Origin: an uncultured Clostridia bacterium
Lineage (GTDB): Bacteria > Bacillota > Clostridia > UMGS1883
Assembly (NCBI GenBank): GCA_934454525.1
Contig: CAKSFM010000002.1
Coordinates: 9,792 to 73,791 of the forward strand
Reading direction: 5' to 3'
Length of the DNA: 64,000 bases
In this document: piece by piece, positions 31,024 to 48,562 of the stretch
Position numbering within the stretch: the first letter of the stretch is position 1
How the letters are laid out: every line of letters starts with the position of its first letter
Translations under genes and position numbers: made by a program
The notes under the pieces: generated by a model
The model's input: the letters and a program-made list of their open reading frames with translations, nothing else
The model's database searches: none
Told to the model about the DNA's origin: nothing

Positions 31024-34000
31024 TTATTTACTTAAGAATCTCTGCATTACTGCCGAAATTTCGGCGCGCGTTGCATAGTCTTTGGGATTAAGCGTTGAAT
31101 CGGTTCGTCCTTTCATAATGCCGCTGCCAACCATATAGGCAAGCGCTCCGATGGCATAATCCGAAGCTTCGCTGTAATCTGCGTAGCTTGTAATATCGGT
31201 TTTTTCAGCCGCGCTCACATCCTGACCCTTATACCTTGCATAGCGGTATATAATTGCCGCAATCTGCTCACGCGTGATATTTTGGTCGGGCGCAAACTGC
31301 TCGTTGCTTATTCCGAGCACAATATTGTTCTTCTGTGCCCATGCAACAGCCTTTGCATAGTATGCGTCAGCCTGAACATCTTCAAAGCTGCTTGCAGCCG
31401 CTTCGGGCGTTCCGTCCGCACGGTGAAGCACCGTAACCATCATTGCACGCGTTATCTCCGTATTCGGTGCAAACAAGGCGTCCGAAACTCCGTTGAACAA
31501 ACCGTTGTCATAAACGTATTTCACATATTCGCCGAACCAGTCCGTTTTAAGAACGTCTGTAAACGGCAGGTCGGATTTTTCTCCGAAAATAACCTGAATG
31601 TTCAGATCCTCCGAAATTGACTGAACCGTGTAGATTTCAGCACGTCCGACTGATTTTCCGTTGATAAGTATATCTTCAACCGCATAGCCTGCATCGGGAA
31701 CAGCCGTTATTGTTACGCTTGACCCGCTGTATGCCCTGCTGCTTGAAACACTTACCTTTCCGTGTTCCGACGGGAGAACATTAACTGCATAGGCCGCTGC
31801 CCGTCCGCCGGATGACCCTCTTCTCGAATCCGTTCTGTTGAAAACGGAAATTGCGTTGTCGAGCGCTGTAACTCCGTTTGTGTAATCCTCTTCCGTTGCC
31901 GAGGGATTGTTAAGCAGCTCCTTGGCAGCATTGATTGCGTCTGAAAGCGCCTGCTTCTTGTCCTCCGAAGCCGACGGATTTGACGCAAGTACATTTTCGG
32001 CTTCACTGATTTTGTCCGCAAGATCGTTCTTTGAATTCTGACCGATTTCGACAATCGCATAATCCGAAAGCCCTCCGGAGGCAACATCGCCGCCGCTCAA
32101 TTCAATATCCGCCGTTTTCAGTTTAACTTTAACAGCTGTTTCGCCGATTGCAAGCGCTGTCAGCGTTCCGTCACTGACGGAAACATTATTTTTGCCGTAA
32201 AGCACATTCCAAAGAACCGCATCATTTTCAAGTCTTATGCGTTTTCCGTCATCTGTTACCGCCCATGCAGTGAGCGCCGCTGTATGACCGTTTCTGACGC
32301 TGAGCTTCTTTTCTCCGTTACTCTGCGGAATCTCATTATCACCGTTTCGGATTTCGATTTCCTTAAGCGAAAATGCGCCTTTTCTTATTACGGAAACAAC
32401 TGTCTCGCTCTTGTTTTCTGCATTATCCACTGCGCAGAGAGTGTGCTGCTTATAAGATTCTCCGTCTGCAAGCTTGCCTGTGTAAACAAAGCTTCCGTTT
32501 GCACCTCTTGCTATGCCGGTTTCCGCTCCGTCAACGGTGAAGCTTACCGATTTTTCCGTAAGACCCTCAATCGTATAGTTTCCGTTCTCATCCGTTAAAA
32601 CCGTATTTGCGCCGAAAATTGCTTTAACTGCGCCGCTGCCGTCCTGCTCAACGCTGTCAGCCGTTTTTCTGCCGAGCGAAAGCACAGGTGCCGATGTGTC
32701 GACCGTGAACCCGAGCTGCGCGTCCGCAAGTTCGGAATCGCTGCCCGTAATATGGTTTTTCGTTTCGGTATACGCTGTGAAATCAATGATATAATCGCCG
32801 TCCTCAAGGCCATCAAGCGTGAATTTCCAGTCCTTTTTAAACTGACCGCCGCTGTATGCCTTTTGTCCGCCGTTAATCGACAGCTCAACGAATACCGGTT
32901 CACTGAAGGTATATTCAACCGTTACACTGTTTTGGCTGATATATTCCTTTGACGTGTCAAAGCTTGCTTTAACGCTTTCAAGCTTCGGCATAACGGTGTG
33001 CTTTTCTTCAAGCGTGAACAAATCGGAGCTGACAGTGTCATCACCGTAATAATAAACCGTTTTGTACTCCTCGCCGAGCTTTTCATATTTTTCGTTAAGC
33101 GTTCTGATATTCACATGATAGGTTTTTCCAACCTCAAGTCCGGCCTCTTTTCCGAACACAAAGTTTTTGCCCTGTTCAAACTGCCCGATGTTATTCTGAA
33201 GCACCGTTCCGTCATTGGCGACAATCTCCGCAATATAATGCGTATAGTCCGGAGAGTCGGCGTCTTCAACCTTAACGAAAAGATTTCCGTTTCCGCCGTA
33301 GTTGATATGCGCGCCTTTGACAGGCTTCGGAAGTTCCGGATTTTTGAACTTAACCGGAGAAGCCGCCATTGCAAGGCTGATACCCTCCGATGTTGAAAGC
33401 GTTGTAACAACATAATATGTTCCGCTCGGCATTGTTTTCGGAAGCGTTATTTTCTCGCTGCCGGAGCTGATTTTGTCGTAATCCTTATGAAGAATATTTG
33501 TGCCGAGTGAATCACCCTTGTTTGCGCTTGTTTTAATCTTTGAGAGAATGTCCTTATCCTCTGTCAGGTAAACATCGATTGTGCCGCTCTGCTCAGCGCC
33601 GCCGTTTATACTCCATGACGCGTCAATATTATAATCCGTTTCGGAAGCATGCGCCGCTGTGCATGAGGTGATTTCCGCAATATCGTCAACACGGTTCATC
33701 ATGAATGTTCCGATGCTGATGTTTTCGGTTGTGTAAGTAACCGTCCATATTCCGTTTTCAATCTTATCCGCTTCAGTTACGGTCACATATATGAAATTTC
33801 CGTCCTCACGTTCCTGAACAAGCATATTTCCGCCGCCGCTGCCATCGTCACCAACGGTTTGAACTGTTTTGCCCGATGGGGTTTTAAGCGTTATTTCGCC
33901 GGGTGCGGGAGTTCCGGTTCCCGTGAAAGGAATTTCGATCAGCAAAGCGTCACTTCCGGCTGCATTCGAAACATTAATGCTTGCCGACCTCTCCGCGGAA

Positions 34001-37000
34001 AGCAAGCTGATACCGCCGTTTGTCAAAACAGGCGTTGCCGCAAGCTGATGAATATTTGTGCCGTAACAGCCTATCATATCTCCCGATTCAAGGCTCATCA
34101 TCGCATTCTGCGTTCCATCGCCCTTTTTCGGTGCGCTGAGGTCAATGTTCTTACCGAATGAAACGCCGTCGCCCCAGTAATAGATTACGCCGAAACGTAT
34201 GCCGATTATTTTTATGTTTGCGCCGATAAACTCATGCGATACCGCCGCTTCAACGCCTGCAAGCTCTTTTCCTCCGACAAAAGGAATACTGTCGGGAATA
34301 CAGATACTTGCAAATATATATCCGTAGAAGTAATGATCTGCAATATTTATCGTTATTCCGCCCTTGATAAGTCCGTCAATGATGCTCACATTTCCGTACA
34401 GATTAAGCTCCCACGGCTCAATCCATTTAGCGTAGATTCCGGCATTGAGGTCAAGCAGCTTATCGGAAAATTTCAGCTTCATATCGCCGGTGAGCGACAT
34501 TCCCTCAAGACTCACGCGCGCATTAAAATCGCCGATAAGCGTTTCAATCGCTTCAAGCCTTGTGAAAAGAAGAATCGTTATCGGGGGCAGCGAATCAAAC
34601 TGTCCGCCGATGGTGTCGGCAAGTTCGTTGATTCCGCCGCCAAGACCCGTCATATAAAGCACGGGCGGTGCAAGCGGAATTTTAAGTCCGTTGCGGACAT
34701 AAAATTCAATCTTGTCGGGAAGAATTTTATCCTTGCCCTTTACCTTAACTTCTTTGAATGCAAGCGTTCCCTCACATTCGATAACCTTGATGTTCACACC
34801 GACATCAAGCTGATAAATATTTTCAATCGTGTTAATTGTTACGCTTGCATATATTCCCGGGGAATTTGCAACGAGCGAACCTAAAACGTCTTTCGGAAGC
34901 GCAAGCGTTGTCTTGGCGTCAATTCCGATAAATCCGGTTGAATCAACCTTAACGGCGCCGTTTTCAACATCGCCCTTTTCGCCGAAAAGAATGTTGTTGA
35001 TTTCGGCAGACAGCTGCCCCTCGGAAAGGTTTGTGTCCTTTGTGAGCTTTGCTCCCGATGATGTTTTTTTCGGCGTTTCGTCAAACAGGTCGTTCATTTC
35101 AAGCGACATATCTTCCTGATCCGCCGTTAAGCTTTCATCAAAAAGATTGTTAAGCTCCTCGCTCATATCCTCCTGATCGGCGGTGAGGTCGGTTGCCTTG
35201 TTGTCTTTTTTCTTTGCGCTTATCGGGATACTGATTGAACCGCCGAATCCTATTCCGTATGTCACGATTCCATCGCCGCCGTCATGCCACTTAGAGCTCA
35301 TCTCGCCGAATTTTAAGTCGACAAGGAATCCTCCCACTGACTGAATCATTGTTGCCGCACCGTCAAGCGAAAGCTGAAGCGGCTTGCTTCCCAAGGTATA
35401 TTCGCCTTTCTTTTCAAGGCGTTCACCGTCAAGAGAAGTCACCATTCCTTTATTAACCGAAAAGCTCCATTTACTTCTCCAAACGTTAATGGAATTGACA
35501 ACCTTGATAAGTCCGTCACCCTTAACGGTATATTCTCCGTTTTGCTCAAAAAGCTCAAGCGGCTTTTCTCCCTCATAGGAAAGCATATTATTGATGATAA
35601 TATCACCGTCGGAATACGAAGCCTGCCAGTAGGTTTCGGTGTTTTCGCCCGATTTTCTTGTCATTTCGCGCAGATTCGCACGAATTGTAAGAAGAATCTC
35701 ATGCTTGCCGATTGCTTTTTCTTCACCGAAATTGTATTTGATTTTGCCGCCGTGAAGCAGACCTGTTTTTTCCGTGCTGCCTTTATAAAAGCTCAGATAA
35801 TCGCCCTCGTTTTCAAAGGCATAGAAATCGTAATCCGTTTTGTTATTATCCGTTGTGCGGATGAGAGCCATCGTTCCGTACATTTTCAGCTTATATTTCG
35901 GATCTGCCGAAACCTGGAGCTTTTGAGGGCAGGTAATGCTTTTGCCAAGCTCTGCCACCAGCTGCGGATTCGTAAATTCAAACACAAGCTTATAGTTTCC
36001 GACGGTAAGCTCTTCGCCCGTTGAAAAGCTCATATTTTCATACGAATCGTCAAGGAACGAAATATTGCTCTTTTTAATCAGAACCGACTCGCCGGTTGTT
36101 TCGTGAATCAGCCTTAAATCCCAGCCCTGATTTTCCTTAAGTGCCTTAAATGCTTTCATCTTTCCCGAAACGGTAACAGCTTTTTCGCCGCTTGTGTAAA
36201 CAATTTTGGGATTGATTTTATTCATCTGCACATCCGGCAGTTTTCCCTCTGTTGAGCGGAGAATAACGCTTCTCTCGGCGGCTGATTCGAAATCTGCCTC
36301 AGTGCCGTCCGCAAGAGTTTGCGTTGCCGTCAGTGAAACGTAAATTGTGCCTGCCGTCAGCTCCGCCTGCGGAACTGCCTTAAGCTTATACTGCTTTGTG
36401 ACAATCTCACTGCCGATTTCCTTATGAACGGCAGCCGCGTCGCCCTCAATAACCGAAAATTCCTTTTCGTCAACAGTCAGGCGAATCATTGCGTTTGTCA
36501 GGTGCACTGCGCCGTCAACAGTGTTGTCGATTTCAACGGTCACATCAATTATTCCGTCATTCTTATATGATTTTTTATCGTCCGCAAGTTCAACGCGCCC
36601 GGCAGTGATATTTATGCCGACATTGCCATCCGCATTTTTTGAAAAGTTGCCAACGCCGTAAAGCAGTTCACCGCAAAAACTTTCACCGTTTGCCAGCGCC
36701 TTGTTTTCCCAGTAAAGTGCAGCAGCGCTGTCGGGCATGCGATGGTCGTTTGAATAGTTCGTAAAATCGCAGTAACGGTCGGGTTTGTAATCATATCTTG
36801 TATTTGCCATATTTGCCCAGTGACCGATAACTGCCCTGTCAGCCGTCACGCCGCCGTTCCAGCCTTTTGTAAGAATATATGAAAGCTTTGACGGTTTAGA
36901 AAGCGAATCAACGCAGCGGATTTGCTGCGGAAGTTCATCTCCCGCATATTCCGATTCCGTCATCGTTGGTTTAATATCTGTATCAACGACAAAATACGGT

Positions 37001-37542
37001 GCATCGATTTCATTTCCGAGCGCCGTGTCCAAAAGCAGGCGTACGCTCACGTTTTCATCCCTGCCGCTTTCGTTTTTAACCTCAAACGAAAGACCGACGT
37101 TTCCAGTTATATCGCTGTCGGCATCCTGCCCGAGAGCTGCCTTGAGAGTCACGGTTATTCCCTTTATTGTCCACGGAATCGTAAGCAGTCTGCCCTCCGC
37201 GCTGACGGCAGGCGTTCCGAGCTTGGAGTCAATTCCGAAAAAGCCGTAATCCTGACCGAAAATATAGTCCTTATCCCCGACACGCACTGTTATAAAAGAT
37301 GTTCCGTTACTGTGCGTTTTGTCCTCTGCATAAAGGAGGGGAATATCGTTATCAAGCACCTTTTTCGGATTGCCCTCGGCGGTTTCGATTGCGAAACCGC
37401 CCGTATCGGCATTAAAAGTATATGTTAAATACCCGTTTGTGATGCTGTATTGTGCCGCTTCGGAAGCAAATGCAGCCGGAGCAAGCGTCAGCAGCATTGC
37501 TGCCGCAAGTATATACGACAGTAATTTTTTGCAGATATTCAT
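31024..37542 (-). CDS. Giant (2172 aa) SLH-anchored secreted protein with unknown N-terminal and central regions, Big_2, FIVAR-like and Listeria/Bacteroides-type repeats
   Basis: Signal peptide MNICKKLLSYILAAAMLLTLAPAAFASEA; RBS AGGAGG. The C-terminal part has a Big_2-like segment (LTAWAVTDDGKRI...GTLTALAIGETAVKVKL), a FIVAR-like helix pair (KQALSDAINAAKELL...YTNGVTALDNAI) and a repeat AYAVNVLPSEHGKVSV...AVPDAGYAVEDILINGK. Three SLH repeats follow (FTDVLKTDWFGEYVKYVYD..., FEDVQADAYYAKAVAWAQ..., TSYADYSEASDYAIGALAY...). Confidence 0.8.
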   Translation of the reverse strand: MNICKKLLSYILAAAMLLTLAPAAFASEAAQYSITNGYLTYTFNADTGGFAIETAEGNPKKVLDNDIPLLYAEDKTHSNGTSFITVRVGDKDYIFGQDYGFFGIDSKLGTPAVSAEGRLLTIPWTIKGITVTLKAALGQDADSDITGNVGLSFEVKNESGRDENVSVRLLLDTALGNEIDAPYFVVDTDIKPTMTESEYAGDELPQQIRCVDSLSKPSKLSYILTKGWNGGVTADRAVIGHWANMANTRYDYKPDRYCDFTNYSNDHRMPDSAAALYWENKALANGESFCGELLYGVGNFSKNADGNVGINITAGRVELADDKKSYKNDGIIDVTVEIDNTVDGAVHLTNAMIRLTVDEKEFSVIEGDAAAVHKEIGSEIVTKQYKLKAVPQAELTAGTIYVSLTATQTLADGTEADFESAAERSVILRSTEGKLPDVQMNKINPKIVYTSGEKAVTVSGKMKAFKALKENQGWDLRLIHETTGESVLIKKSNISFLDDSYENMSFSTGEELTVGNYKLVFEFTNPQLVAELGKSITCPQKLQVSADPKYKLKMYGTMALIRTTDNNKTDYDFYAFENEGDYLSFYKGSTEKTGLLHGGKIKYNFGEEKAIGKHEILLTIRANLREMTRKSGENTETYWQASYSDGDIIINNMLSYEGEKPLELFEQNGEYTVKGDGLIKVVNSINVWRSKWSFSVNKGMVTSLDGERLEKKGEYTLGSKPLQLSLDGAATMIQSVGGFLVDLKFGEMSSKWHDGGDGIVTYGIGFGGSISIPISAKKKDNKATDLTADQEDMSEELNNLFDESLTADQEDMSLEMNDLFDETPKKTSSGAKLTKDTNLSEGQLSAEINNILFGEKGDVENGAVKVDSTGFIGIDAKTTLALPKDVLGSLVANSPGIYASVTINTIENIYQLDVGVNIKVIECEGTLAFKEVKVKGKDKILPDKIEFYVRNGLKIPLAPPVLYMTGLGGGINELADTIGGQFDSLPPITILLFTRLEAIETLIGDFNARVSLEGMSLTGDMKLKFSDKLLDLNAGIYAKWIEPWELNLYGNVSIIDGLIKGGITINIADHYFYGYIFASICIPDSIPFVGGKELAGVEAAVSHEFIGANIKIIGIRFGVIYYWGDGVSFGKNIDLSAPKKGDGTQNAMMSLESGDMIGCYGTNIHQLAATPVLTNGGISLLSAERSASINVSNAAGSDALLIEIPFTGTGTPAPGEITLKTPSGKTVQTVGDDGSGGGNMLVQEREDGNFIYVTVTEADKIENGIWTVTYTTENISIGTFMMNRVDDIAEITSCTAAHASETDYNIDASWSINGGAEQSGTIDVYLTEDKDILSKIKTSANKGDSLGTNILHKDYDKISSGSEKITLPKTMPSGTYYVVTTLSTSEGISLAMAASPVKFKNPELPKPVKGAHINYGGNGNLFVKVEDADSPDYTHYIAEIVANDGTVLQNNIGQFEQGKNFVFGKEAGLEVGKTYHVNIRTLNEKYEKLGEEYKTVYYYGDDTVSSDLFTLEEKHTVMPKLESVKASFDTSKEYISQNSVTVEYTFSEPVFVELSINGGQKAYSGGQFKKDWKFTLDGLEDGDYIIDFTAYTETKNHITGSDSELADAQLGFTVDTSAPVLSLGRKTADSVEQDGSGAVKAIFGANTVLTDENGNYTIEGLTEKSVSFTVDGAETGIARGANGSFVYTGKLADGESYKQHTLCAVDNAENKSETVVSVIRKGAFSLKEIEIRNGDNEIPQSNGEKKLSVRNGHTAALTAWAVTDDGKRIRLENDAVLWNVLYGKNNVSVSDGTLTALAIGETAVKVKLKTADIELSGGDVASGGLSDYAIVEIGQNSKNDLADKISEAENVLASNPSASEDKKQALSDAINAAKELLNNPSATEEDYTNGVTALDNAISVFNRTDSRRGSSGGRAAAYAVNVLPSEHGKVSVSSSRAYSGSSVTITAVPDAGYAVEDILINGKSVGRAEIYTVQSISEDLNIQVIFGEKSDLPFTDVLKTDWFGEYVKYVYDNGLFNGVSDALFAPNTEITRAMMVTVLHRADGTPEAAASSFEDVQADAYYAKAVAWAQKNNIVLGISNEQFAPDQNITREQIAAIIYRYARYKGQDVSAAEKTDITSYADYSEASDYAIGALAYMVGSGIMKGRTDSTLNPKDYATRAEISAVMQRFLSK
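35074..35187 (-). repeat. In-frame tandem duplication (2 x 57 nt) encoding a 19-aa acidic motif
   Basis: LTADQEDMSEELNNLFDES / LTADQEDMSLEMNDLFDET (15/19 identical), inside the 2172-aa ORF. Confidence 0.85.
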
Positions 37543-37557
37543 TCCTGCTGTTCCTCC

Positions 37558-40500
37558 TTAAATATAGATATAAACCTGAAGCACAAAGTAATCGCGCTTA
37601 TCCGTCTGAAGATAGAATGTGTGCCAGCCTTCTGAAAGTCCTGTCACTGTGAAGCTGCCGTTTTCATCGCGCGGAACAACAATTTCGCTCTTTTTCATCT
37701 GCCCCATTGTTTTAAGTCCGCTCATGCGGCGAACATATACAGCCGCGCTCGGAGAAATGTTCTTAAGGCTTACAGTCACCTTACCGCCCTCAACCTCGCA
37801 TCTGCCGGACGCATCGGGAAGATTTCCATTCACGAATGCAACCGTGTCGTGCATGCCGACAAGGCGCACCGTGCGCTTAACCTCAGTGATGTTATGCGCT
37901 TTATCGGAAACCGAATAGGTGATTGTATATGGCTTTCCGGAATCAAATTTATTCTTATTTATGTCGCTCGGATCAAAGCCGCCCCAATCAATCTTAACCG
38001 TTCCGTTTAAATCAGTGCCTTTTCCGAAAGCATCGAACGCATTGAATGCAACGCCCGGCTTTTCAAGCATGTCACGGTTATACGCCTCGCCGATGGAGCT
38101 GTTTTCATAGAACACAAGCTCATTCTTTCCGAAAAGGTCAATAACCGGCGGAATCCTGTCGATAATTTCAACGTCAACGCCGTACGAATCTGTGAGAAGA
38201 TTCGACTTTTCCATGTCAAATATGTAAAGTCCGTTATCGCTGTATACCTTTTCGTTTTCCTTTGCATATTCCCCGCTGCTGCCGGCAATTCTCGTTTCGT
38301 CATCGGTAACAACCGTGACCGTAACATCCCGGTTTGTCACGGGGTTCACATCAGACGCGATAACATAGCCTGCCTTTGACGGCGTTATTGAGCCGTCACG
38401 CGTTTTTGTCTGCCATTCGCCGTTTTCAAGTTCATCGTATTCATAGCTCCATCTCACCTGCGTGATTATGGGCGCCTTTGTGTCGATATCCTTAATTTCA
38501 ATGGTCAGGAAAGCTGACGTTCCCTCATCGTCATACGTTTTGAAGGTGTAGAAACCGTTTTCGCAGAACACAAACTCTGCCGTGTCGGCTTTCTGAACAA
38601 TTCCCCCGTATGTAACCGTAACATCGCTAAGCCCGCGCCGCTTGTCGATTGCTTCGCCGGTTTCTGAATTTTTCGCCTTGTCAAACCTCACGCTGACCTC
38701 GGTTTTGTTCGGATTAGGTGTCATAACGGCTTCAAGCGCCGGGGGCGTTGTGTCAATATTTGCAACTGTCACATCGCGCACACCCTCGTTTCCGAATTCG
38801 TCTGTGAAGTATACGTCTACCGTGCCCGGCTTTGTGAATGTTATAACCGATGTTGTGTAATTTACACTGTAATCCGATTCCCGAAGCGTTCCGGACGGAT
38901 TGTACTCAATTCTCGTTATGCGCACATTCGGCTTTGAAAAGGTGAGCGATGCGCTGACCGGGCGCGAGGTTACCTTTTCCGTGCTGTACTCAACCTCTGC
39001 TGTGGGAACGGTTTTATCGATATTGCCAATGCTGAAATTCTTCGAGGTTTTATTTCCCACGCCGTCCAGCATAACAATGCTGTATACTCCGTTTTCTGTT
39101 ATGTTATACTCATAAACTCCGCCGTTTTCATTAAGCTCAGTGCTGCTGTTTGCAGAAACAAGCATAACCTTGCCGACTCCGCTCTTTTCATCCGATGCAG
39201 TTACGGTAAGTCGGATATCCTTGTTTGTTTTTCCCGTTTCGGACAAAGTGTAGCTGATTTCACCGGGTTCGCAGTCGAAATTATCGAGTGCGTCCGCGCG
39301 GACGTCCTTTGTATATCCGAACTTATCCTTTATTTTAAAGGTAAATGAACGCTCGAACGAATCAAGCTCCTTTTCAAATGAACCGTTATTGTTCAGAACG
39401 CGGATTTCACGGTCGCCGATTTCCCATCTTGTCTGGTCATCGCCGTAATCCGTTATCGGTTCAAGCACAACCTTTGCCTTTTTATAGAACGATTTTTCAT
39501 CTGCCGGATCGGCAATTTCAACCCACTCGTCATTGCTGTCCTGATAATAATACTTAAGCTTGTAATCCTTATTTTCCTCAAGCTCAAGCTTGCAGATTGC
39601 GCCCATTGTTCCGAGACCTTCCATAAAGTTAAGCATTGCCCAGGATCTGTTTCCGGACTTGTTTTCAACTTCAACAGCACGGATTCTGTGATTATCACTG
39701 AAAGTATAGCGAATCATTTTCACGCTCTTGGGGTCGGTATCTCCGTAATAATCGATTTTTACGGGAATATTGTACTGTGCGCCGTTCCAGCTCCACGGTT
39801 CTTCGCTGTGGTCTTCGTCAATCGGAGCTTCAACGAGTATCTCCGATTGCGTTTCATCGTCATCTTCTCTGAGCAGCGTGATTTTTCTGATTCCGCTCTC
39901 CGCGTCCTGTGCAGTCACATAGAACATAACCTCTCCGGCAGTGGGAATAATTCTTTCGGGGTGACCGTAATCGTCATCGCCGAACACAAATATTTCCGGC
40001 GTTACTCTTACGCTCGTTTCGGGAGGCGTGTTATCGATTCCGTCAAGCACAAGGCTCTCAAGACTCCACGTTGACGGCTCGGTATTGGTTTCATCGAATA
40101 TGTAAACCTCAATCAGTCTTTCCGTTGATTTTGCCAATTGATAATAAAACTCCGAGCTTTCATCCTCAATGGGAACTATCTTATAGACAAGCTTGGTATA
40201 TGTACTGTCGCTTGCGCCATGCTCAGATTCCTCCTCCGAGAACACAAGACCGTTCTTCGGTTTATCGCCGGTCGGAATCGGGGCAAGATTCTTGCCTGCT
40301 TTTTCGGGCGTTATGACAAGCTTCGGATAATTATCGGGATTTACAAGGCTGTAATCCGTGATGAGCGTTTCGCCGTCATATATTTCCGCCTTAAGTCCGC
40401 CGGTGGAGTTAAACTCAATTCCCTCCGCTTTCAGCCGCACAAGCTTTGTTCTGCCGATATCATCAACGGTGTAAAGCATATATTCGCCGTTATTTTCAAT

Positions 40501-43500
40501 CGTGAACGAATAATCCTGCGAATAAAATCCGCCGAGCGATTTTGCAAGAGCAAAATTTGTTTCGGTGATTTTTTCCGCTGCCGTCAGTCCGTCTGGATCA
40601 ATCAGCGTGTTGTCAGCCTGTGTTCTTATCTTATCCTGCGGAAGAACATAGACAGGCATATTGAATTTCACTTTCACAATCGACTTTTTGCCTGCTTTCA
40701 TGGGATTGAGCGTAAATTCACGCGAAAGCTCCGCGTCTTTCGGCGAAAGCGGCTCGGAGGATATTATATCAGCCGTGTTGCCGACGCTGTCCTCCGCGCG
40801 GATGCAGATAAAGTAATTTCCCGTCAGTCCGGCTGCGCGAACGCTGTAGGTCAGATTTTTTTCACCGTCCCACAATCCTTCTTCCTCGCGCGTCTGCATT
40901 ATTGTGATATTTTCATCCGCTGATTTTTCAAACAGTTTATCGTTAATTTTTCCGTTTGATATATATGTTTTGTAATCTTCCTCGCTGACAGCCGTTACCA
41001 GAACACCATCGCCCTTAACTCCGTTTACGGTGACTGTTGCCTGCGCGTCCGTTCTTGCGCCCGAAGCCGTGTGTGATATGCGAATATCCGCTGCCGGCAC
41101 TTCCCTGTCAATTCCCCTTATCGTTACGGGAATTTCTGAAGAGTTGCCTGCTGCGTCCTTTGCGCGGAGCTTTGCATTATCAACATTTTCCGTTACCGTT
41201 ATATTGAACACATTCCGTTCATTCTCAGCTTTTTCAATCTTTATTGCCGCGCTGTCAGATGTCAGCGTCAGCTCGCTGTCAAGATTATCACTGAGATAAA
41301 CTTTTCCGCTTATACTCTCGGCAGTGTGCTTATCCTCAATCACAAGTCTGGACTGCGGCGCCGTTTCATCGTGATAAAACTCAATCTCTCCCGACCAAAC
41401 CGTTTCAGCATTTATTTTGGAAGTGTTGCCGTCAGCGTCAAACACAGCCGCCTGAATATAAAGAATATTTTTCCCGTCCGAAAGGCTTGCCACGGGCGCC
41501 TTTGTGTTAATATCTGCGGTTATAACATCTCCGTTTACCGCCGCGTCACCTATCTTTACCCAGTCACCGAGCATTGAGAGGCTTTCACCGATTCGGCAGT
41601 AAATTGCCTGATTTTTCATCTTCGCTGCATTTCTGAAGTTTTCCGAAACTTTAACGGAAACCGTGATATCGGATGAAGCCGTCAGCGCTTTTTCGTTATA
41701 CTGCTTATCGGTCACGATTGAAGCCGTGATTTCGGGTTTTTCGCTCCTTATCCCGAAGCTTTCCGAAACGGCGGAGCTTTCAATTCCGTTTTTGTCGGTT
41801 GCGCGAACCTTGAGTGCATAAGCGCCGTTCGGAATACTTCCTATATTAATATTCTGCGAAATTGCTCCGTCCGCTGTTGTCAGTGCAAATTCCTCAAGTC
41901 CTTCAACAGGTGTTCCGTCAGGATTCACAACCGACGCAACCCCCTCGGTCACTCCCGAAGCGTCCGTCACAAAGACGGAAACTGTCTGAAGCGCCTTGCA
42001 GGTATCGGGCGCCAGACTGCGCGCACTTATTGCCGGCCCTTCATTGTCAAACGAGAACGGTTTTTCCGTGTAGGAAGCGCTTTTTTCACCCGACGGCGGA
42101 ATTATTTTGCATACAAGCGTGTACGCTCCGTTGAGCGCGCTTGTCGCAGCATTGTCTGCGGTGTTAATTCCGTCCGTGTATTTTACATATTTCGTTATGG
42201 GATTATTCTTCGAGTCTTTCCAGAGATACTCCACCTTATTATTGCTGTTCGTGCTTACCGTTATTTTGTAGTTACGGTGCGGAACGGATGAATCGCTTTC
42301 CGTTTCGATTCGGCAGGCAGTATCTTCATTATTAATATTTATATCGCGGACAGATTGGTCTGTTGCATTGCCGAAGCCGTCCTTTGCGAAATATATCAGC
42401 CGCCCCTTAAAGTTTTCTCCCTTTTCAACGCGGATGATTGCCGAAGCCGTGTTTCCGTTCTCCGTATCCGCCTGGTCGATAAACGCCCATCTGTTAAGCG
42501 TACTGTCAATCTCTCCGCTTGTCTGCTTCTGCGCGGTGTTTTCGTCAAATTCCGGAACATTTACAAGACTGTCCGTGAAGCAGTAGTAGAGCCGCCCTGT
42601 TTTCGAAGCGTCCGTTATCTTCACAGAATAGCTGTTGCTGCGGCTGCCGTCCTGTTTCCGCAGTCCGCACTGTTCGTCCACCGTAACATCCGGCGCTTTG
42701 TTATCAAGAAGAACGTTTTCAATCTTTTTCGAGAGCGGATTTCCTGCCGCGTCCTTGCCTGAAAATACAAGTGTGAAGCTGCCCTCAACCGCGTCGCGCA
42801 GGCGAAGCGTGATTCCGGTATCGCTGCCCTTTGTTGCGGGCACTTTCTGCGTTGCGGACGGCGAATTTTTGCCTTTATAATCATAGATTGCAACGTTTGA
42901 GCTGCCGTTTTTCAGTTCCATAACGGCGTAACCCTCCGTAGTGGTTTCTCCGCTGCCGAGCGCGGAATAGATCGTTTCGGCCGGAGTCACGGTAAGGTCT
43001 GCCGTTTTGTGCCATTTTGACAGATATTCCTCGGCGCCGCCCTCTGCCGCCGTCAGGCGAAGGTCGGGGCAAACAGCGTCAACCTTGTTGACTGAGGAAA
43101 TGCAGGAATATCCCACTTTAGCTCCGTCGCGAAGCGTTGCCGTGTTTCCGCCGAACAGCACCGGCGAAAGCGTACCTTTCAGCACAAGCTCAATGCTCTT
43201 ATTCTGCGAATCCGCTTTTTCGTCATACGGGAACGTCAGCTTAAATGTGTTTCCGTATATTGTCAGTCTTTTATCCCGCGCTTCAAGCCTTTTTGAAGCG
43301 TCACCCAGTGCAATATATGCCTCCGAAAAAATCAGCTTCGCTCCGTAAAGATTATCCTCTGCGGAAAGATGATCGTTGTTTCCGCCCGTCTTTATCGTTC
43401 CCGTAACTGTAATGCTTCTTGTTCCATCGGCATTTTTGATTGTATTGTTATAGAAATTGTTGTCATCATTATATTTTTTGTCTGTTGTTGACGGAACATA

Positions 43501-44469
43501 TTTGTTCGTGCTGAACGACACGCTTTCAATCTCGAACGCCTTGCGGACAAATGTTATCTCCTTCGTATACTTATCGGGAGATTTTTTTGTTCTGACCGTT
43601 CCATCGGGAAAGCCGAGCGTTGCGCTCACGGTTATTCTGTTAACGCCGTTTTTGTTCATATATGCCGCAAGAGCGTTTTTCTCCGCCTTGAGGCCCGTAT
43701 CCCCGAAAGTGAAGCCGGCGTTTGTCTGAAGATCCTTCTGATTAACCGTTCCGCCGTCCTTTTTCTGCCCCGAAAATGCATATGTAATTGTCGGCGGCGC
43801 GCTCAGATCCAGACAGTAATATTTCTCTCCGATAGGGCTGTCTGTTACCACACGCACATACTGGTCTCTCACATAACCGTCGTATTTCAGCTCATATGTG
43901 CCGGAATCGCTTCCCGAATCGCTCACATAAACCGTAGCCGGGTCGGTAGTAAAGTTACCGGTTTTCTCTATCACGCGCTCGGGCCAGAAAACATATATGA
44001 GCCTTGTCTGCTTATGGTCGTCTGTGTCGAGCCATTTTCCGTCATTCTTGCCCATTCCGTTCGGATAGTTTCTATCAAAGAGGGCTTCATTATAGCCATA
44101 CTCGGGAGCGCTTTTTTTCGAGCGGCGCACCCACATGTAATATGACCTTATCTTAACCGCGTCCTTATGGTTATTCTCAAAGGTGATTGTATCAAGCGTC
44201 CACGGTGCACGCGTTGACTGATACTCGGTTCTCGTTTCCGTTCCTTTTTTGTTTACGCCCTGAACGTTGAAAACCTCGTAATCCTTCCCGAAGCGCATGT
44301 GACACTGCACATTGTTTTTTCCCGTTGCAGAATCCTTTGCATTGCTGACTTCGAATCCGAGAGTGTACACCCACACATACTCTTCCGCCGCAGCGGCAGG
44401 TATGCCGGCGAGCATTGACGCAAGCATGCAAAGCGCCATCGCCATGCTCATAATTCTTCTTCGCCTCAT
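37558..44469 (-). CDS. Giant (2303 aa) secreted protein: PLAT/LH2-like N-terminal domain followed by many Ig-like domains; no recognisable wall anchor
   Basis: Signal-like N-terminus MRRRRIMSMAMALCMLASMLAGIPAAAAEE. At least 9 domain boundaries have the form (I/L)D-x-x-(A/P)P (DNKAPDV, DNEGPAI, DETAPQS, DREVPAA, DNTPPET, DKTVPTA, DTTPPAL, DTKAPII, DRIPPVI). A DUF5011-like segment lies near the C-terminus. No LPXTG or SLH. The ATG overlaps the TetR stop (ATGA). Confidence 0.8.
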   Translation of the reverse strand: MRRRRIMSMAMALCMLASMLAGIPAAAAEEYVWVYTLGFEVSNAKDSATGKNNVQCHMRFGKDYEVFNVQGVNKKGTETRTEYQSTRAPWTLDTITFENNHKDAVKIRSYYMWVRRSKKSAPEYGYNEALFDRNYPNGMGKNDGKWLDTDDHKQTRLIYVFWPERVIEKTGNFTTDPATVYVSDSGSDSGTYELKYDGYVRDQYVRVVTDSPIGEKYYCLDLSAPPTITYAFSGQKKDGGTVNQKDLQTNAGFTFGDTGLKAEKNALAAYMNKNGVNRITVSATLGFPDGTVRTKKSPDKYTKEITFVRKAFEIESVSFSTNKYVPSTTDKKYNDDNNFYNNTIKNADGTRSITVTGTIKTGGNNDHLSAEDNLYGAKLIFSEAYIALGDASKRLEARDKRLTIYGNTFKLTFPYDEKADSQNKSIELVLKGTLSPVLFGGNTATLRDGAKVGYSCISSVNKVDAVCPDLRLTAAEGGAEEYLSKWHKTADLTVTPAETIYSALGSGETTTEGYAVMELKNGSSNVAIYDYKGKNSPSATQKVPATKGSDTGITLRLRDAVEGSFTLVFSGKDAAGNPLSKKIENVLLDNKAPDVTVDEQCGLRKQDGSRSNSYSVKITDASKTGRLYYCFTDSLVNVPEFDENTAQKQTSGEIDSTLNRWAFIDQADTENGNTASAIIRVEKGENFKGRLIYFAKDGFGNATDQSVRDININNEDTACRIETESDSSVPHRNYKITVSTNSNNKVEYLWKDSKNNPITKYVKYTDGINTADNAATSALNGAYTLVCKIIPPSGEKSASYTEKPFSFDNEGPAISARSLAPDTCKALQTVSVFVTDASGVTEGVASVVNPDGTPVEGLEEFALTTADGAISQNINIGSIPNGAYALKVRATDKNGIESSAVSESFGIRSEKPEITASIVTDKQYNEKALTASSDITVSVKVSENFRNAAKMKNQAIYCRIGESLSMLGDWVKIGDAAVNGDVITADINTKAPVASLSDGKNILYIQAAVFDADGNTSKINAETVWSGEIEFYHDETAPQSRLVIEDKHTAESISGKVYLSDNLDSELTLTSDSAAIKIEKAENERNVFNITVTENVDNAKLRAKDAAGNSSEIPVTIRGIDREVPAADIRISHTASGARTDAQATVTVNGVKGDGVLVTAVSEEDYKTYISNGKINDKLFEKSADENITIMQTREEEGLWDGEKNLTYSVRAAGLTGNYFICIRAEDSVGNTADIISSEPLSPKDAELSREFTLNPMKAGKKSIVKVKFNMPVYVLPQDKIRTQADNTLIDPDGLTAAEKITETNFALAKSLGGFYSQDYSFTIENNGEYMLYTVDDIGRTKLVRLKAEGIEFNSTGGLKAEIYDGETLITDYSLVNPDNYPKLVITPEKAGKNLAPIPTGDKPKNGLVFSEEESEHGASDSTYTKLVYKIVPIEDESSEFYYQLAKSTERLIEVYIFDETNTEPSTWSLESLVLDGIDNTPPETSVRVTPEIFVFGDDDYGHPERIIPTAGEVMFYVTAQDAESGIRKITLLREDDDETQSEILVEAPIDEDHSEEPWSWNGAQYNIPVKIDYYGDTDPKSVKMIRYTFSDNHRIRAVEVENKSGNRSWAMLNFMEGLGTMGAICKLELEENKDYKLKYYYQDSNDEWVEIADPADEKSFYKKAKVVLEPITDYGDDQTRWEIGDREIRVLNNNGSFEKELDSFERSFTFKIKDKFGYTKDVRADALDNFDCEPGEISYTLSETGKTNKDIRLTVTASDEKSGVGKVMLVSANSSTELNENGGVYEYNITENGVYSIVMLDGVGNKTSKNFSIGNIDKTVPTAEVEYSTEKVTSRPVSASLTFSKPNVRITRIEYNPSGTLRESDYSVNYTTSVITFTKPGTVDVYFTDEFGNEGVRDVTVANIDTTPPALEAVMTPNPNKTEVSVRFDKAKNSETGEAIDKRRGLSDVTVTYGGIVQKADTAEFVFCENGFYTFKTYDDEGTSAFLTIEIKDIDTKAPIITQVRWSYEYDELENGEWQTKTRDGSITPSKAGYVIASDVNPVTNRDVTVTVVTDDETRIAGSSGEYAKENEKVYSDNGLYIFDMEKSNLLTDSYGVDVEIIDRIPPVIDLFGKNELVFYENSSIGEAYNRDMLEKPGVAFNAFDAFGKGTDLNGTVKIDWGGFDPSDINKNKFDSGKPYTITYSVSDKAHNITEVKRTVRLVGMHDTVAFVNGNLPDASGRCEVEGGKVTVSLKNISPSAAVYVRRMSGLKTMGQMKKSEIVVPRDENGSFTVTGLSEGWHTFYLQTDKRDYFVLQVYIYI

Positions 44470-45068
44470 AACATTGCCTCCAATTCTTCCATATTATTAT
44501 TTTTATTCTCTTTAAGAACTGCAAATACCGAAAGCTTAAGCGCTTTCATTTCCGATTCAAGATAATACTTGTCTTCAAACAATGCATAATGCACCGCCGC
44601 ACGCACAAACAAAAATATAAAACCTGTAAGAATATCCTCCGGAATCCCCAGAATCGGCGAAAGTCTTTGTGCATACTCTGTGTATCTCCGGCTCACACCC
44701 TCAACAAATTTCTTTCCATGCTCAATGTATTTCGGATGCGTGTAAACCTGGTACATAAGCCTGTATTTTTTCCCGTGCTTCTGCGCCGTCCAGTAAGGAA
44801 TTTCTTCGATAAACCTAAGAATATCCATTGGGTTTTTCGGCGCAAGCTCCATAAAGTCGTCCTCAACCTTTGCCATGCAATATTCGGTTGACTGCGTTAT
44901 AAGATCGTCAACATTGTCAAAATACCCGTACAGATTTGCCGATGTCATGCCGCAATATTTTCCAAGCTCCTTTATCCCCGTATCGCGCAGTCCGTTATCG
45001 CAGTAACATTCAAAGCATTTCATCATTATCTCTTTCTTTTTTTCCTCGCGGTATTTGGGACTTCGCAT
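44466..45068 (-). CDS. TetR/AcrR-family transcriptional regulator
   Basis: N-terminal HTH FECYCDNGLRDTGIKELGKYCGMTSANLYGYF with an all-helical C-terminal domain, 200 aa, RBS AGAGGTGA. Confidence 0.8.
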   Translation of the reverse strand: MRSPKYREEKKKEIMMKCFECYCDNGLRDTGIKELGKYCGMTSANLYGYFDNVDDLITQSTEYCMAKVEDDFMELAPKNPMDILRFIEEIPYWTAQKHGKKYRLMYQVYTHPKYIEHGKKFVEGVSRRYTEYAQRLSPILGIPEDILTGFIFLFVRAAVHYALFEDKYYLESEMKALKLSVFAVLKENKNNNMEELEAML

Positions 45069-45084
45069 TAAATCACCTCTTTAA

Positions 45085-45102
45085 TTACTGATTGATAAGT
45101 AA
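45085..45102. promoter_or_regulatory. Candidate TetR operator (imperfect 18-bp palindrome between -10 and RBS)
   Basis: ttactgat-tg-ataagtaa: 8-bp half-sites matching 7/8, placed between the -10 (45103-45108) and the RBS. Confidence 0.35.
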
Positions 45103-45131
45103 ATTATAACACGCACTTTCCGAATAAGCAA
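45103..45131 (-). promoter_or_regulatory. Strong candidate sigma-A promoter of the TetR/giant-protein operon
   Basis: Minus strand TTGCTT (45131-45126), 17-nt spacer, TGT-TATAAT extended -10 (45111-45103). Confidence 0.65.
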
Positions 45132-45264
45132 TAGAAAAAAGAAAAAATTTTTAGTTTTTTTGACAAAATCAAAAGTCGCCGATGAGGCTCTGTTCAGTGA
45201 ATCCAAAGTGCAAAAATGCAACAGGCATATTGCCGATGTTCTGAACGGACAAAATTTCACAAGG

Positions 45265-47551: not shown

Positions 47552-48562
47552 TTACTGTTCTGCACCCTGTGCGCCGTTTTGGATACCGTCTTCCGCAGTG
47601 TCATCCCCTACCGTGACCTCCGGAATTATATCGTTTCCGTTCTCATCATAACAGAACATTGTTTCGCGAACCTTGGCGATTGCAGCCGTGTCCGGAATTA
47701 CGTATGAAATATTATCAATATACTGAGGTGTGCACGGAAGCATTTCCGTCTGAATATTTTCTTTACCGATGGAAAGAACCTGTTTTGCCACCTGAACAAA
47801 GTTATCCGGCGTCATTGAGGTTTCCATATTTTTCGCCACAATCTTATAAATCTTGTTGATTTTGCCGATATACTTCATCTGAAGCTTCTGCTCCGCAATT
47901 GCATGCAGGAACTGCTGCTGAACCTTGATTCTGTCAAGGTCACCGTTTTTATAGCGGCGGAAGCGCACAAGCTGCTCCGACTTATCCCCGTCCAGATGCT
48001 GAAATCCCGGCTGAAGGTCAATATACAAATCCTGATACTTGTCCGTGTATTTCATGCGCTGCGGAACATCAAAATCAACACCGCCAAGCTCGTCAATCGT
48101 GTCCTTAAATGCGTCAAAATTCACCTTGACAAAGTGGTTTATCGGAATCCCCGTAAGCTCCTTGACGGCAATTATTGAATTTTCAACAGCCTTTTTCGTC
48201 TTTTTTCCCATCGCATGCGCCGCATTGATTTTAATCCACTGATTATTAAATTTAATGCGCGTGTCACGCGGAATACTGAGCACCGAAACCTTATCCTGCT
48301 GAGGGTCAATCTGCGCAAGCATCATAACATCCGTCAGACCGCCGCTTTTATCTGTTCCGAGAATAAGAATATTGCACTTTTCCTTGGATATAACAACCGA
48401 ATCAAGCGTATTTTCGTCAAATTCATCAATAACATCGTTACTGTAGGGCGTTGTAAACAGCTTTGCGCAGTATATACCGCCGCCTGCCGCAGCAAACATC
48501 ATTAACACCACGAGCAGCACATATACAACCTTAAAGGATCTGCCCTCCGCATTTTTTGCCAT
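47552..48562 (-). CDS. LytR-CpsA-Psr (LCP) family cell-envelope phosphotransferase
   Basis: N-terminal TM anchor, then NILILGTDKSGGLTDVMMLAQIDPQQDKVSVLSIPRDT, the LCP core motif. Confidence 0.88.
   Translation of the reverse strand: MAKNAEGRSFKVVYVLLVVLMMFAAAGGGIYCAKLFTTPYSNDVIDEFDENTLDSVVISKEKCNILILGTDKSGGLTDVMMLAQIDPQQDKVSVLSIPRDTRIKFNNQWIKINAAHAMGKKTKKAVENSIIAVKELTGIPINHFVKVNFDAFKDTIDELGGVDFDVPQRMKYTDKYQDLYIDLQPGFQHLDGDKSEQLVRFRRYKNGDLDRIKVQQQFLHAIAEQKLQMKYIGKINKIYKIVAKNMETSMTPDNFVQVAKQVLSIGKENIQTEMLPCTPQYIDNISYVIPDTAAIAKVRETMFCYDENGNDIIPEVTVGDDTAEDGIQNGAQGAEQ

Follow-up and report, generated by a model that had tools for sequence, protein, structure and literature searches.

In cellulosomes, anchoring relies on type I/II dockerin-cohesin pairing onto SLH scaffoldins, such as OlpB/SdbA of Acetivibrio thermocellus. 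TetR, AcrR, and IcaR are autoregulated TetR-family repressors, and IcaR represses the ica biofilm-adhesin operon. The fibrillar adhesins of Gram-positive bacteria comprise an adhesive tip, a stalk of tandem Ig-like domains, and a wall anchor (Monzon et al., 2021; PMC8286594), and the main text of that survey does not mention PLAT. In systems of the LapA/LapG/LapE type, an RTX adhesin is retained in an outer-membrane β-barrel and is freed by a dedicated protease (PMC8286594). The operon described here encodes two giant secreted proteins, A and B, behind a TetR-family regulator. The A-B pair has not been studied previously, and on comparative grounds we give about an even chance to the reading that the operon encodes a two-protein surface structure conserved across Bacillota, with a clade-specific, autoregulated TetR-type repressor in front.

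The DNA analyzed (“the window”) is a 64,000-nt stretch from an uncultured Clostridia bacterium (UMGS1883; GCA_934454525.1, contig CAKSFM010000002.1, positions 9,792–73,791). All features of the operon, as given here and below, lie on the (-) strand, in the order promoter, TetR gene, gene A, gene B, and terminator. The promoter (45131-45103), read from the sequence, consists of the -35 hexamer TTGCTT (45131-45126), a 17-nt spacer, and the extended -10 element TGtTATAAT (hexamer 45108-45103). It is not listed by a simple consensus scan because the -35 hexamer matches the consensus at only 3/6 positions; the same layout and spacing recur across 15 homologous TetR-led loci. The first cistron (44466..45068) encodes the 200-aa TetR-family regulator, and its stop codon overlaps the start of gene A (ATGA), an overlap kept at 10/13 loci. 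Gene A (37558..44469) encodes a 2303-aa secreted protein with a signal peptide, a PLAT-like head, a long Ig-like array, a conserved C-terminal third, and no anchor, and is separated by a 15-nt gap containing the ribosome-binding site AGGAGG from gene B (31024..37542), which encodes a 2172-aa secreted, SLH-anchored protein. The initial annotation had described a strong TTGCTT-17 promoter before the TetR gene as well as both of these junctions, and all three are present in the sequence. An intrinsic terminator hairpin with a U-run (30972..31022) lies directly 3' of the gene B stop codon (dG -29.9 kcal/mol, z -5.3; 0/200 shuffles equally stable by RNA folding). From promoter to terminator, TetR, A, and B form a single unit whose junctions are tight or overlap, and A or B may have an additional internal promoter. 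Beside the operon in the window lie genes for GH141-like and Golvesin_C proteins with SLH anchors, for a sugar transporter of the ABC type, and for a two-component system.

An A-like gene lies directly upstream of a B-like gene, on the same strand, in 59/59 intact loci from about 60 species, where the count covers B-like loci with enough upstream DNA. Four loci show no gene before B and break off at a contig end or close to it, and locus L087 carries a distant A' type that was missed when searching with the window A. The hosts include gut Clostridia, Lutispora, Sedimentibacter, Paenibacillus, and Saccharibacillus, and the gaps between the two genes are mostly 3–21 nt, with some overlaps. Independent occurrence of either gene was sought in this distribution survey and was not found; the two genes are obligately syntenic. 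Both are also under purifying selection, with dN/dS at 0.10 for A, compared with a 93%-identical relative, and at 0.07 for B.

Every B has an anchoring route, either through SLH repeats fused to the protein itself or through a dockerin, with an SLH protein encoded separately downstream. In the window, the C-terminal anchor module of B (31024..32031) comprises FIVAR (residues 1838-1899), an InlB B-repeat (1918-1955), and three SLH repeats (1993-2172) as identified by Pfam, so that the three repeats noticed initially are recovered together with two further domains; searches against the PDB gave Sap SLH matches. Paenibacillus, Sedimentibacter, and Flemingiibacterium instead encode the anchor in a gene of its own downstream of B, whose SLH product is homologous to residues 1841-2169 of the window B and is 533 aa long in Paenibacillus. 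A single Paenibacillus B was scanned and carries a type I dockerin at its end, and no cohesin was found in the separate SLH partner protein by Pfam or PDB sequence search.

The N-termini of A and B are typical Sec signal peptides, as judged by eye. No LPXTG, SLH, or dockerin was found in the window A, and no anchor domain was found among 15 diverse family members covering all lineages sampled; the initial description of A as exported and free of LPXTG and SLH is therefore borne out and extends to dockerin. The PLAT/LH2-like N-terminal domain (approximately residues 34-117; 44119..44370) was delimited by the A-family profile and family alignment. These profile positions match the PLAT domain of C. 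perfringens alpha-toxin (1ca1, E 4.5e-7) and that of 5-lipoxygenase, and Pfam PLAT is detected in 4/15 family members. The “GTD” motif of PLAT is degraded in the window clade. At the family level, the profile confirms that A begins with a PLAT-family domain, as the initial annotation proposed, although in the window protein itself this region stays below the Pfam thresholds. The same applies to the “many Ig-like domains” claimed for A, which are supported by weak, scattered matches across the family (Big_3_2, Big_13, Bact_surface_Ig-like, and Y_Y_Y) but are sub-threshold in the window.

Family-wide identity of A is 40–55% in the C-terminal third (residues 1625-2303; 37558..39597) and 17–25% in the N-terminal half. 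The C-terminal third is also the longest segment conserved with Paenibacillus and Lutispora, and it ends in a near-invariant GW(Y/H)TFY(V/L)QTDKRDYFxLxVY present in all lineages. Because conservation is concentrated there, the C-terminus fits a docking end, with the variable end lying distally. The pair most likely forms a wall-anchored base and a long fiber with a lipid-binding tip. The SLH repeats of B would bind a secondary cell-wall polymer and make B the base, whereas A, after Sec export, would be held on B through its conserved C-terminal third, so that a fast-diverging Ig-like stalk of about 20 domains would project outward, tipped by the PLAT domain for binding lipids or membranes. The whole would resemble a fibrillar adhesin divided between two polypeptides. 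The earlier suggestion that the SLH protein tethers an anchorless Ig-like fiber is supported at the level of comparative genomics only, as A is anchorless in 15 lineages, B is always anchorable, and the two are obligately adjacent; the synteny and co-translation of A and B fit equally well with proteins that act sequentially or on a shared substrate.

A different and rather unlikely reading is that A and B are co-expressed yet physically independent, with B as a wall-bound glycan-binding protein, A either set free in soluble form, as a bridging or lipid-binding factor with a PLAT tip, or coating other cells or particles, and the synteny reflecting shared regulation or function. The signal peptide of A and its lack of an anchor in any lineage would agree with release, and nearly half of the surveyed fibrillar-adhesin-like proteins have no recognizable anchor (PMC8286594). 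However, near-absolute adjacency, with short gaps or overlaps, persists at phylum-level distances, and the conserved end of A is its C-terminus rather than the presumed binding tip. Moreover, the anchoring route of B is kept together with A even where the anchor has moved to a separate gene, and such preservation would not be needed if A were simply secreted.

About 1000 aa of B could not be assigned initially, and this region is now largely resolved into an N-terminal supersandwich, Ig-like domains, and a central β-meander. The supersandwich, or galactose-mutarotase-like domain (approximately residues 27-316; 36595..37464), was modeled by AF2 with a pLDDT of 78, and its Foldseek hits (E 8e-7 to 1e-4) were sandwich domains without a catalytic role from GH38, GH94, GH36, a polysaccharide lyase, and OpgG. 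No other part of B is as well conserved as this domain, in which many Asp, Glu, His, Trp, and Tyr residues are invariant, and family-wide identity across the N-terminus and core of B is 45–72%. The up-down β-meander (approximately residues 734-1131, about 400 aa; 34150..35343) was modeled with about 22 long antiparallel strands (pLDDT 78, pTM 0.65) and a disordered acidic loop at approximately residues 780-840. Structure prediction and Foldseek, recommended at the outset, thus related the first domain to glycan enzymes but yielded no true PDB fold match for the second, for which the best hits had a TM of 0.30 or less and an rmsd >11 Å. The weak neighbors were LptD, FimD/PapC, VDAC/Tom40, porins, and ApoB100. 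The meander is confined to B-like giant proteins; it occurs in 227 representative proteins, nearly all 2000–2600 aa long and with the domain at about 700–1150.

Given its many invariant acidic and aromatic residues, the supersandwich could be catalytic or glycan-binding instead of a docking platform. This leads to a second alternative, less probable still, in which the pair is a surface polysaccharide-processing or capture complex of the cellulosome/amylosome kind, with the supersandwich as its active or glycan-binding center and A as a long substrate-capturing arm. The enzyme-like matches, the invariant residues, the Paenibacillus dockerin, and the adjoining SLH proteins, sugar transporter, and two-component system are in line with it. 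On the other hand, the enzymes are matched in their accessory sandwich domains, B has no predicted catalytic module of the (alpha/alpha)6, TIM-barrel, or β-helix type, there were no CAZy-type Pfam matches, the pair has different neighbors in other species (among them rpoBC and ribosomal protein genes), and a PLAT domain indicates lipids over glycans. A contact-dependent membrane-attacking or lipid-handling device, in which the PLAT tip binds a target membrane and the barrel-like β-domain of B serves as a pore or lipid conduit, is highly improbable. In its favor, PLAT is the membrane-binding domain of alpha-toxin, and the β-domain has no structural neighbors other than transmembrane barrels and the lipid belt of ApoB100. 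Against it, the hits of the β-domain reflect a shared up-down topology and not a fold, this domain sits in the anchored subunit distant from the PLAT tip, and an enzymatic toxin domain, a polymorphic C-terminus, and an immunity gene are all absent.

Expression of the proposed base and fiber would be controlled by the TetR-family regulator, which scores 21.5 bits against Pfam TetR_N, under the 24-bit cut-off, and has full-length TetR/AcrR matches in the PDB by phmmer (best 2eh3, E 6e-7). It is 74–84% identical among orthologous loci, whereas A is only 33–48% identical there. A pseudo-palindromic box, TTACTTATCAATCAGTAA (45085..45102), lies immediately 3' of the -10 hexamer, is kept as TTAYTTATCAATYRRTAA in 16/16 TetR-led A-B loci, and occurs in its exact form once in the 64-kb window. 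Of the autoregulated and ligand-gated expression proposed initially, autoregulation is the part supported by this conserved candidate operator. A TetR dimer on the box, which overlaps the transcription start, would repress its own operon, and a signal at the conserved C-terminal domain would release it, thereby inducing all three genes together. The regulator is confined to one clade of A-B loci; elsewhere the first gene encodes an unrelated TetR, a C11 peptidase, a trypsin-like peptidase, or other regulators, and in three sister loci an unrelated TetR (16% identity) has its own palindrome at the same position. The TetR is therefore not an integral part of the A-B system. The C11 or trypsin-like surface proteases leading other lineages suggest that the fiber may be matured or released by proteolysis there. 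The arrangement was initially called uncommon, which is wrong for this clade, as close relatives in human-gut metagenomes repeatedly lead genes for other secreted surface proteins. In this gut subfamily, HTH and operators vary from group to group against a nearly invariant sensor domain; four cysteines are invariant in the subfamily. Co-transcription with a neighboring gene is also found for about 15% of Streptomyces TetR regulators (PMC3511530).

Compared with known systems, the A-family profile aligns with residues 257-347 of alpha-toxin, its C-terminal PLAT domain, but A has no phospholipase C domain and carries PLAT at the N-terminus of a 2300-aa stalk, with the canonical motif degraded in the window clade. 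The LapA system likewise combines a giant fiber with a β-barrel-like element in the component that retains it, and many homologous A-B operons include a dedicated protease gene (C11/trypsin-like); however, the monoderm A-B hosts lack an outer membrane, and neither an RTX repeat nor a T1SS nor homology to LapG/LapD is present. The resemblance is thus one of analogy, not family membership, and the barrel likeness is topological only. Like TetR, AcrR, and IcaR, the window regulator has about 200 aa, an N-terminal HTH, and a candidate palindromic site overlapping its own promoter, and it shows homology to TetR/AcrR/IcaR structures. It differs in heading the operon, with translational coupling to its targets, instead of being transcribed divergently from them (co-transcription is the 15% class; PMC3511530), in targeting giant surface proteins, and in belonging to the four-cysteine gut subfamily. 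The Paenibacillus-type B, ending in a dockerin and followed by a small SLH protein, recalls the cellulosome in its apparent anchoring in trans, whereas the window B has fused SLH repeats and no dockerin, the Paenibacillus-type partner has no detected cohesin, and no enzymes are attached. With fibrillar adhesins, the pair shares a signal peptide, an N-terminal putative binding domain, a long Ig-like array, non-covalent SLH anchoring, and a variable tip-proximal half. Unlike in those adhesins, the tip and stalk (A) and the anchor (B) sit on two giant polypeptides whose genes always occur as a pair, and B adds the supersandwich and the family-specific β-meander.

The TetR-like gene (45068-44466, minus strand; 200 aa according to the ORF listing and direct reading) is followed on the same strand by gene A (44469-37558), which encodes a secreted, anchorless protein of 2303 aa, and gene B (37542-31024), which encodes a secreted protein of 2172 aa with SLH repeats. 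The initial annotation had described a TetR-led, translationally coupled operon with two giant genes, and the junctions bear this out: the ATG of A overlaps the TetR stop codon as ATGA, and B starts 15 nt past the stop codon of A with AGGAGG before its start. The promoter, also read directly (45131-45103, minus strand), consists of TTGCTT, a 17-nt spacer, and TGtTATAAT. It was missing from a generic scan because the -35 hexamer fits the consensus at only three of six positions, and its -35/-10 layout is kept in 15 homologous loci. Directly 3′ of B is a hairpin with a U-run (dG -29.9 kcal/mol, z -5.3). Promoter, tight gene junctions, and terminator therefore define TetR, A, and B as one discrete unit.

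The genes flanking the operon are ordinary chromosomal ones: gap together with genes for a cyclophilin and an LCP protein on one side, a sensor kinase gene and a carbohydrate locus on the other. An origin by horizontal transfer or as an island was rejected, since GC content is homogeneous over the window. The LytR-CpsA-Psr (LCP) family gene (47552-48562, minus strand) is found some 2.5 kb away on the upstream side of the operon; enzymes of this family attach glycopolymers to the wall, and SLH domains bind molecules of that class. Besides a Cache/His_kinase sensor, an AraC-type response regulator, a solute-binding protein, and two ABC permeases, the adjoining carbohydrate-utilization-type locus (8134-30513, minus strand) encodes an FAD oxidoreductase. 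Its two GH141-like β-helix proteins have Golvesin_C domains, and two further proteins of 1337 and 1004 aa, both SLH-anchored, carry Golvesin_C/Big_5 domains.

The pairing of A and B was surveyed in the contexts of A and B homologues and in a B-profile scan of species-representative genomes (80 loci), and the genes upstream of B were checked by tblastn and ORF analysis. An A-like gene is located directly upstream of B on the same strand in every locus with enough upstream sequence. The 59 intact pairs have gaps of mostly 3-21 nt, with some overlaps, and their A-like genes encode 1,560-2,540 aa (mostly >2,100 aa). Four loci have no gene upstream of B, and in these B is at or near the contig end; a fifth locus without an A match (L087) carries a distant paralogous type of A, termed A′, which W_A missed. 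The view of the two giant genes as a linked pair thus gained 59 intact examples and met no independent occurrence. Word-indexed protein searches had returned only six relatives of full-length A and five of its C-terminal 679 aa, but this apparent rarity is an artifact of the search method, because A turned up in every case once the loci fetched through B were searched by tblastn. Hosts include uncultured Clostridia and Oscillospiraceae of the gut, as well as Acetivibrio sp. MSJd-27, Lutispora, Sedimentibacter, Ruminiclostridium, Ca. Flemingiibacterium, and many Paenibacillus species, and the wider gene neighborhood of the pair differs between species. Saccharibacillus carries the distant paralogous A′-B′ type. 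Comparison with a 93%-identical relative gave a dN/dS of 0.10 (A) and 0.07 (B), and both genes are therefore kept by selection; positive selection was rejected, as every window compared had a dN/dS of 0.05-0.13. That A and B form a conserved, uncharacterized system is well supported, and literature searches found no description of either the pair or the TetR cassette treated below.

Several loci depart from the simple two-gene form. In L003 (9395-16276) and L004, A is split into ORFs of 157, about 1980, and 98 aa, and A or B is heavily fragmented in L053 and L076; these are either pseudogenes or assembly indel errors. One gut MAG has two pairs (L012 and L027), the former with an extra 2367-aa ORF downstream, and P. 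polysaccharolyticus carries both pair types (L073 and L088). The distant paralogous pair in Paenibacillus and Saccharibacillus (L083-L089) consists of A′ of about 1720 aa and B′ of about 2570 aa with SLH.

The gene preceding A varies among lineages. A window-type TetR precedes A throughout the window clade (about 16 loci), where no gene for a separate anchor follows B, SLH being fused to B itself. Within this clade, TetR identity is 74-84%, compared with 33-48% for A and 55-64% for B, and the ATGA overlap of TetR and A occurs in 10 of 13 loci. Three loci of sister species, likewise with nothing after B, have an unrelated TetR upstream of the pair (L014 2232-2942, L024 2379-3047, and L025 2373-3041) with a clear TetR_N domain and 16% identity to that of the window. 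The L024 copy comes with a palindrome of its own (TTGAGTGTACTCAA) right behind the -10 hexamer. It looks as if the TetR of this operon was recruited independently or replaced in sister species. Elsewhere, A is preceded by a C11 (clostripain-family) peptidase in Paenibacillus, Sedimentibacter, and Flemingiibacterium, A′ by a trypsin-like peptidase, and A in other loci by a response regulator or an AraC-type regulator.

The first-cistron protein of the window is, by sequence comparison, a divergent TetR-family member with an N-terminal HTH: Pfam TetR_N aligns to residues 24-57 at 21.5 bits, under the 24-bit cut-off, and phmmer against the PDB retrieves 34 TetR/AcrR-family chains (best 2eh3, E 6e-7, residues 11-174). 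A conserved pseudo-palindromic candidate operator box abuts the -10 hexamer in 16 of 16 orthologous loci, and in the window (45085-45102) it is the imperfect palindrome TTACT-N8-AGTAA. An inverted-repeat finder with 6-nt seeds missed this box and reported only an A/T-tract inverted repeat (AAAAAAGAAAAAA / TTTTTAGTTTTTT; 45135-45160) just upstream of the -35 hexamer, which could be UP-element-like.

Relatives of this TetR are encoded on at least 564 contigs in a metagenome scan, many of them labeled human-gut metagenome. Downstream genes were classified in the best 80 TetR loci (L090-L169), three of which had too little downstream sequence. An A-like gene follows TetR in seven loci (TetR identity 77-97%), a collagen-repeat protein in 48 (65-69%), a PrsA-like PPIase in six (66-67%), and other large signal-peptide proteins in 16 (67-70%), with cargo including CBM48, β-helix repeats, Listeria-Bacteroides repeats, BspA-type LRR with fn3, and DUF6273. 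The 4-nt overlap with the TetR gene recurs in several cassette loci, and nearly all those examined have a common promoter layout with a pseudo-palindrome directly after the -10, although the palindromes differ by group (TTACTTATCAATCAGTAA, AACCGAACGGTCGGT, AACGAACGTTCA, TTGAACGATTAGTT, and ACTGATCAGTT). In the alignment of cassette TetRs, the C-terminal (sensor/dimerization) domain is almost invariant and the recognition-helix region is group-specific; the near-invariance of the former suggests a common signal. C18, C21, C39, and C64 are invariant over all cassette types (KCFxCY, xxCG, and YCM). Having four invariant cysteines is uncommon among TetR proteins, and they could belong to a redox- or metal-sensing site. 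The cassette TetRs are likely autoregulated sensor-repressors that respond to one signal, each controlling its own surface-protein cassette. A TetR gene joined in one operon to giant adhesin-like genes had initially been considered uncommon. Co-transcription of TetR genes with their targets is a known minority pattern, amounting to 15% in Streptomyces (PMC3511530), so the arrangement as such is not out of the ordinary. What stands out is the cargo and the cassette family to which this TetR belongs.

Protein A is conserved unevenly, with family identities of 17-25% in the N-terminal half and 40-55% in the C-terminal third (residues 1625-2303). The C-terminal end of the protein is the near-invariant motif GWYTFYVQTDKRDYFxLxVY. 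The PLAT-like head proposed for A holds at the family level: positions 34-117 of the A-family profile A5 match the PLAT domains of C. perfringens alpha-toxin (1ca1, E 4.5e-7) and 5-lipoxygenase (E 3.5e-4), and 4 of 15 A homologues have a Pfam PLAT match (best 8e-9). Window A alone has no Pfam PLAT match at E 0.1 or better; its N-terminus aligns to the PLAT region with a degraded motif. The many Ig-like domains first read in A fared less clearly. Among the 15 homologues, matches to Bact_surface_Ig-like, Big_3_2, Big_13, Y_Y_Y, and Filamin are sub-threshold or scattered, and window A has nothing significant of this or any other kind in Pfam and NCBIfam. It has seven DxxGN motifs and no internal repeats by self-BLAST. 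Searched against the PDB as single sequences, A and B gave SLH matches only.

The anchor of the pair is on B, or next to it. Window B ends in three SLH stretches (Pfam SLH, E 2e-28) homologous to the B. anthracis Sap SLH structures 6bt4 and 3pyw, and three tandem SLH repeats form a module that binds secondary cell-wall polymer (SCWP). No anchor domain was found in A across the 15 homologues sampled, and neither A nor B has an LPXTG-like C-terminal motif, so the original description of B as SLH-anchored and A as anchorless stands. Across the 239 matches of the B family, the C-termini bear SLH repeats, dockerin, or nothing. In the C11-led group (Paenibacillus, Sedimentibacter, and Flemingiibacterium), B is about 1,900-2,100 aa without SLH repeats and is followed by an SLH protein (about 530 aa) encoded separately, residues 218-529 of which align with window B 1841-2169 at 38% identity. 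Some lineages thus encode the anchor module as a gene of its own, and the window has it fused to B. This four-gene version is exemplified by L007 1224-17289 (Paenibacillus CP009284), with C11 peptidase, A, B without SLH, and SLH protein, and likewise occurs in L036-L050, L059, L065-L069, L072-L075, and L082; the C11 peptidases scanned from Paenibacillus and Flemingiibacterium also bear SLH. One Paenibacillus B that was scanned has a type I dockerin (Dockerin_1, 25 bits vs. the 22.9-bit cut-off), and Pfam finds none in the window's B. The unassigned N-terminal 217 aa of the separate SLH protein may be a cohesin-like receptor, although no cohesin was detected in the SLH partner of Paenibacillus B.

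The best-supported explanation, whose chance of being correct we put near even, is a two-polypeptide fibrillar surface structure under TetR repression, and it builds on the observed operon structure, synteny, domain content, selection, and anchor distribution of A and B, from which we infer function. SLH repeats would attach B to the wall, and A, held via its own conserved C-terminal third, would project a variable stalk of Ig-like domains tipped by PLAT. The first gene product would repress the operon at the box overlapping the transcription start until some signal, presumably a ligand, induces it. A might instead be released, the two proteins being co-expressed but independent. This would accommodate the missing anchor of A, but we consider it unlikely: among the comparative evidence, tethering is backed most strongly by the anchor distribution, with A invariably anchorless and B never without a route to the wall, and every B locus with enough upstream sequence has an A-like gene.

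Approximately 1000 aa of B could initially not be assigned. The AF2 model of B 27-1226 is all-β (pLDDT 78), and its N-terminal domain of about 290 aa matches supersandwich accessory domains in Foldseek (E 8e-7 to 1e-4), namely those of GH38, GH94, GH36, a polysaccharide lyase, and OpgG; in B this domain is followed by Ig-like domains. This part of the region is therefore no longer without relatives, whereas the β-meander described below has no fold match in the PDB. The matches raise the idea of a glycan-processing or capture complex centered on the supersandwich domain, which is rather improbable. CAZyme Pfam families were found in neither B nor its homologues, the B profile matched nothing in the PDB beyond SLH, and B was not placed among the glycoside hydrolases or lyases, because only an accessory sandwich domain was matched and no catalytic module.

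Since the N-terminal domain dominated the Foldseek results of the 1200-residue model, the central domain was modeled separately. The model of B 700-1150 (pLDDT 78, pTM 0.65) consists of some 22 long antiparallel strands that run up and down in sequence, with a disordered acidic loop. The sole structural neighbors of this β-meander are LptD, FimD/PapC, VDAC/Tom40, porins, and the ApoB100 belt, with best TM-scores of 0.22-0.30 and rmsd of 11-25 Å, so that it shares topology but not fold with them; the PDB and a viral library gave no fold-level match. By an exhaustive HMMER search, 227 cluster representatives contain the domain; almost all are 2000-2600 aa long and have it at about residues 700-1150, and it is thus exclusive to B-like giant proteins. 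Conservation within B is highest in the N-terminal and central domains (45-72% identity). The acidic loop (B residues about 778-840; window about 35022-35211, minus strand) contains a near-duplicate motif (DLTADQEDMSEELNNLFDES / LTADQEDMSLEMNDLFDET), and its length varies widely between homologues, so that the β-meander region spans 384-582 aa and is shortest in Paenibacillus.

A bolder version of the tethered fibre, which we regard as doubtful, is a new two-subunit surface machine that would be widespread in monoderm Bacillota. The usher- or porin-like β-meander of the wall-anchored subunit, unique to this family, would grip or thread the invariant C-terminus of the PLAT-tipped fibre, the dedicated proteases of other lineages would control fibre release, and the machine in gut Clostridia would be one cargo among surface proteins gated by cysteine-bearing TetRs, with a common gut signal and diverged operators. 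A membrane-attacking or lipid-handling device, which the alpha-toxin PLAT and ApoB100 resemblances might evoke, is very improbable given how remote the latter is. Membership among outer-membrane β-barrels (FimD/PapC, LptD, porins, and VDAC) was rejected from these TM-scores and from the homologues in monoderm Paenibacillus. Also rejected were an alpha-2-macroglobulin-like protein (no helical thioester domain, and B is all-β), an RHS/Tc cocoon (no YD repeats and no Foldseek match), an inverse autotransporter or OmpM-type SLH porin (hosts are monoderm and domain order differs), and an S-layer protein proper (a repressor leads the operon, and Paenibacillus has other S-layer proteins).

The A-B pair occurs in abundant, poorly characterized human-gut Clostridia and in soil Paenibacillus, and includes a confidently predicted β-domain of about 400 aa whose model has no structural relative. 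Nearly half of predicted fibrillar adhesins are without any known anchor (PMC8286594), and if A is indeed tethered by B, a conserved system with a giant fibre held in trans by a partner of its own would account for one class of anchorless adhesin. The TetR leader-cassette family offers a handle on how gut commensals switch surface proteins, and its members are candidate parts for inducible expression in hard-to-manipulate organisms. Compared with known systems, A and B differ from sortase-anchored (LPXTG) proteins in the missing C-terminal motif. Cellulosome-style anchoring, in which a dockerin is combined with an SLH protein, is echoed in the Paenibacillus form, whereas window B falls outside cohesin-dockerin systems. 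Closest in working is the Gram-positive fibrillar adhesin, but that is a single polypeptide, whereas here the putative PLAT tip is on A and the anchor is on B.
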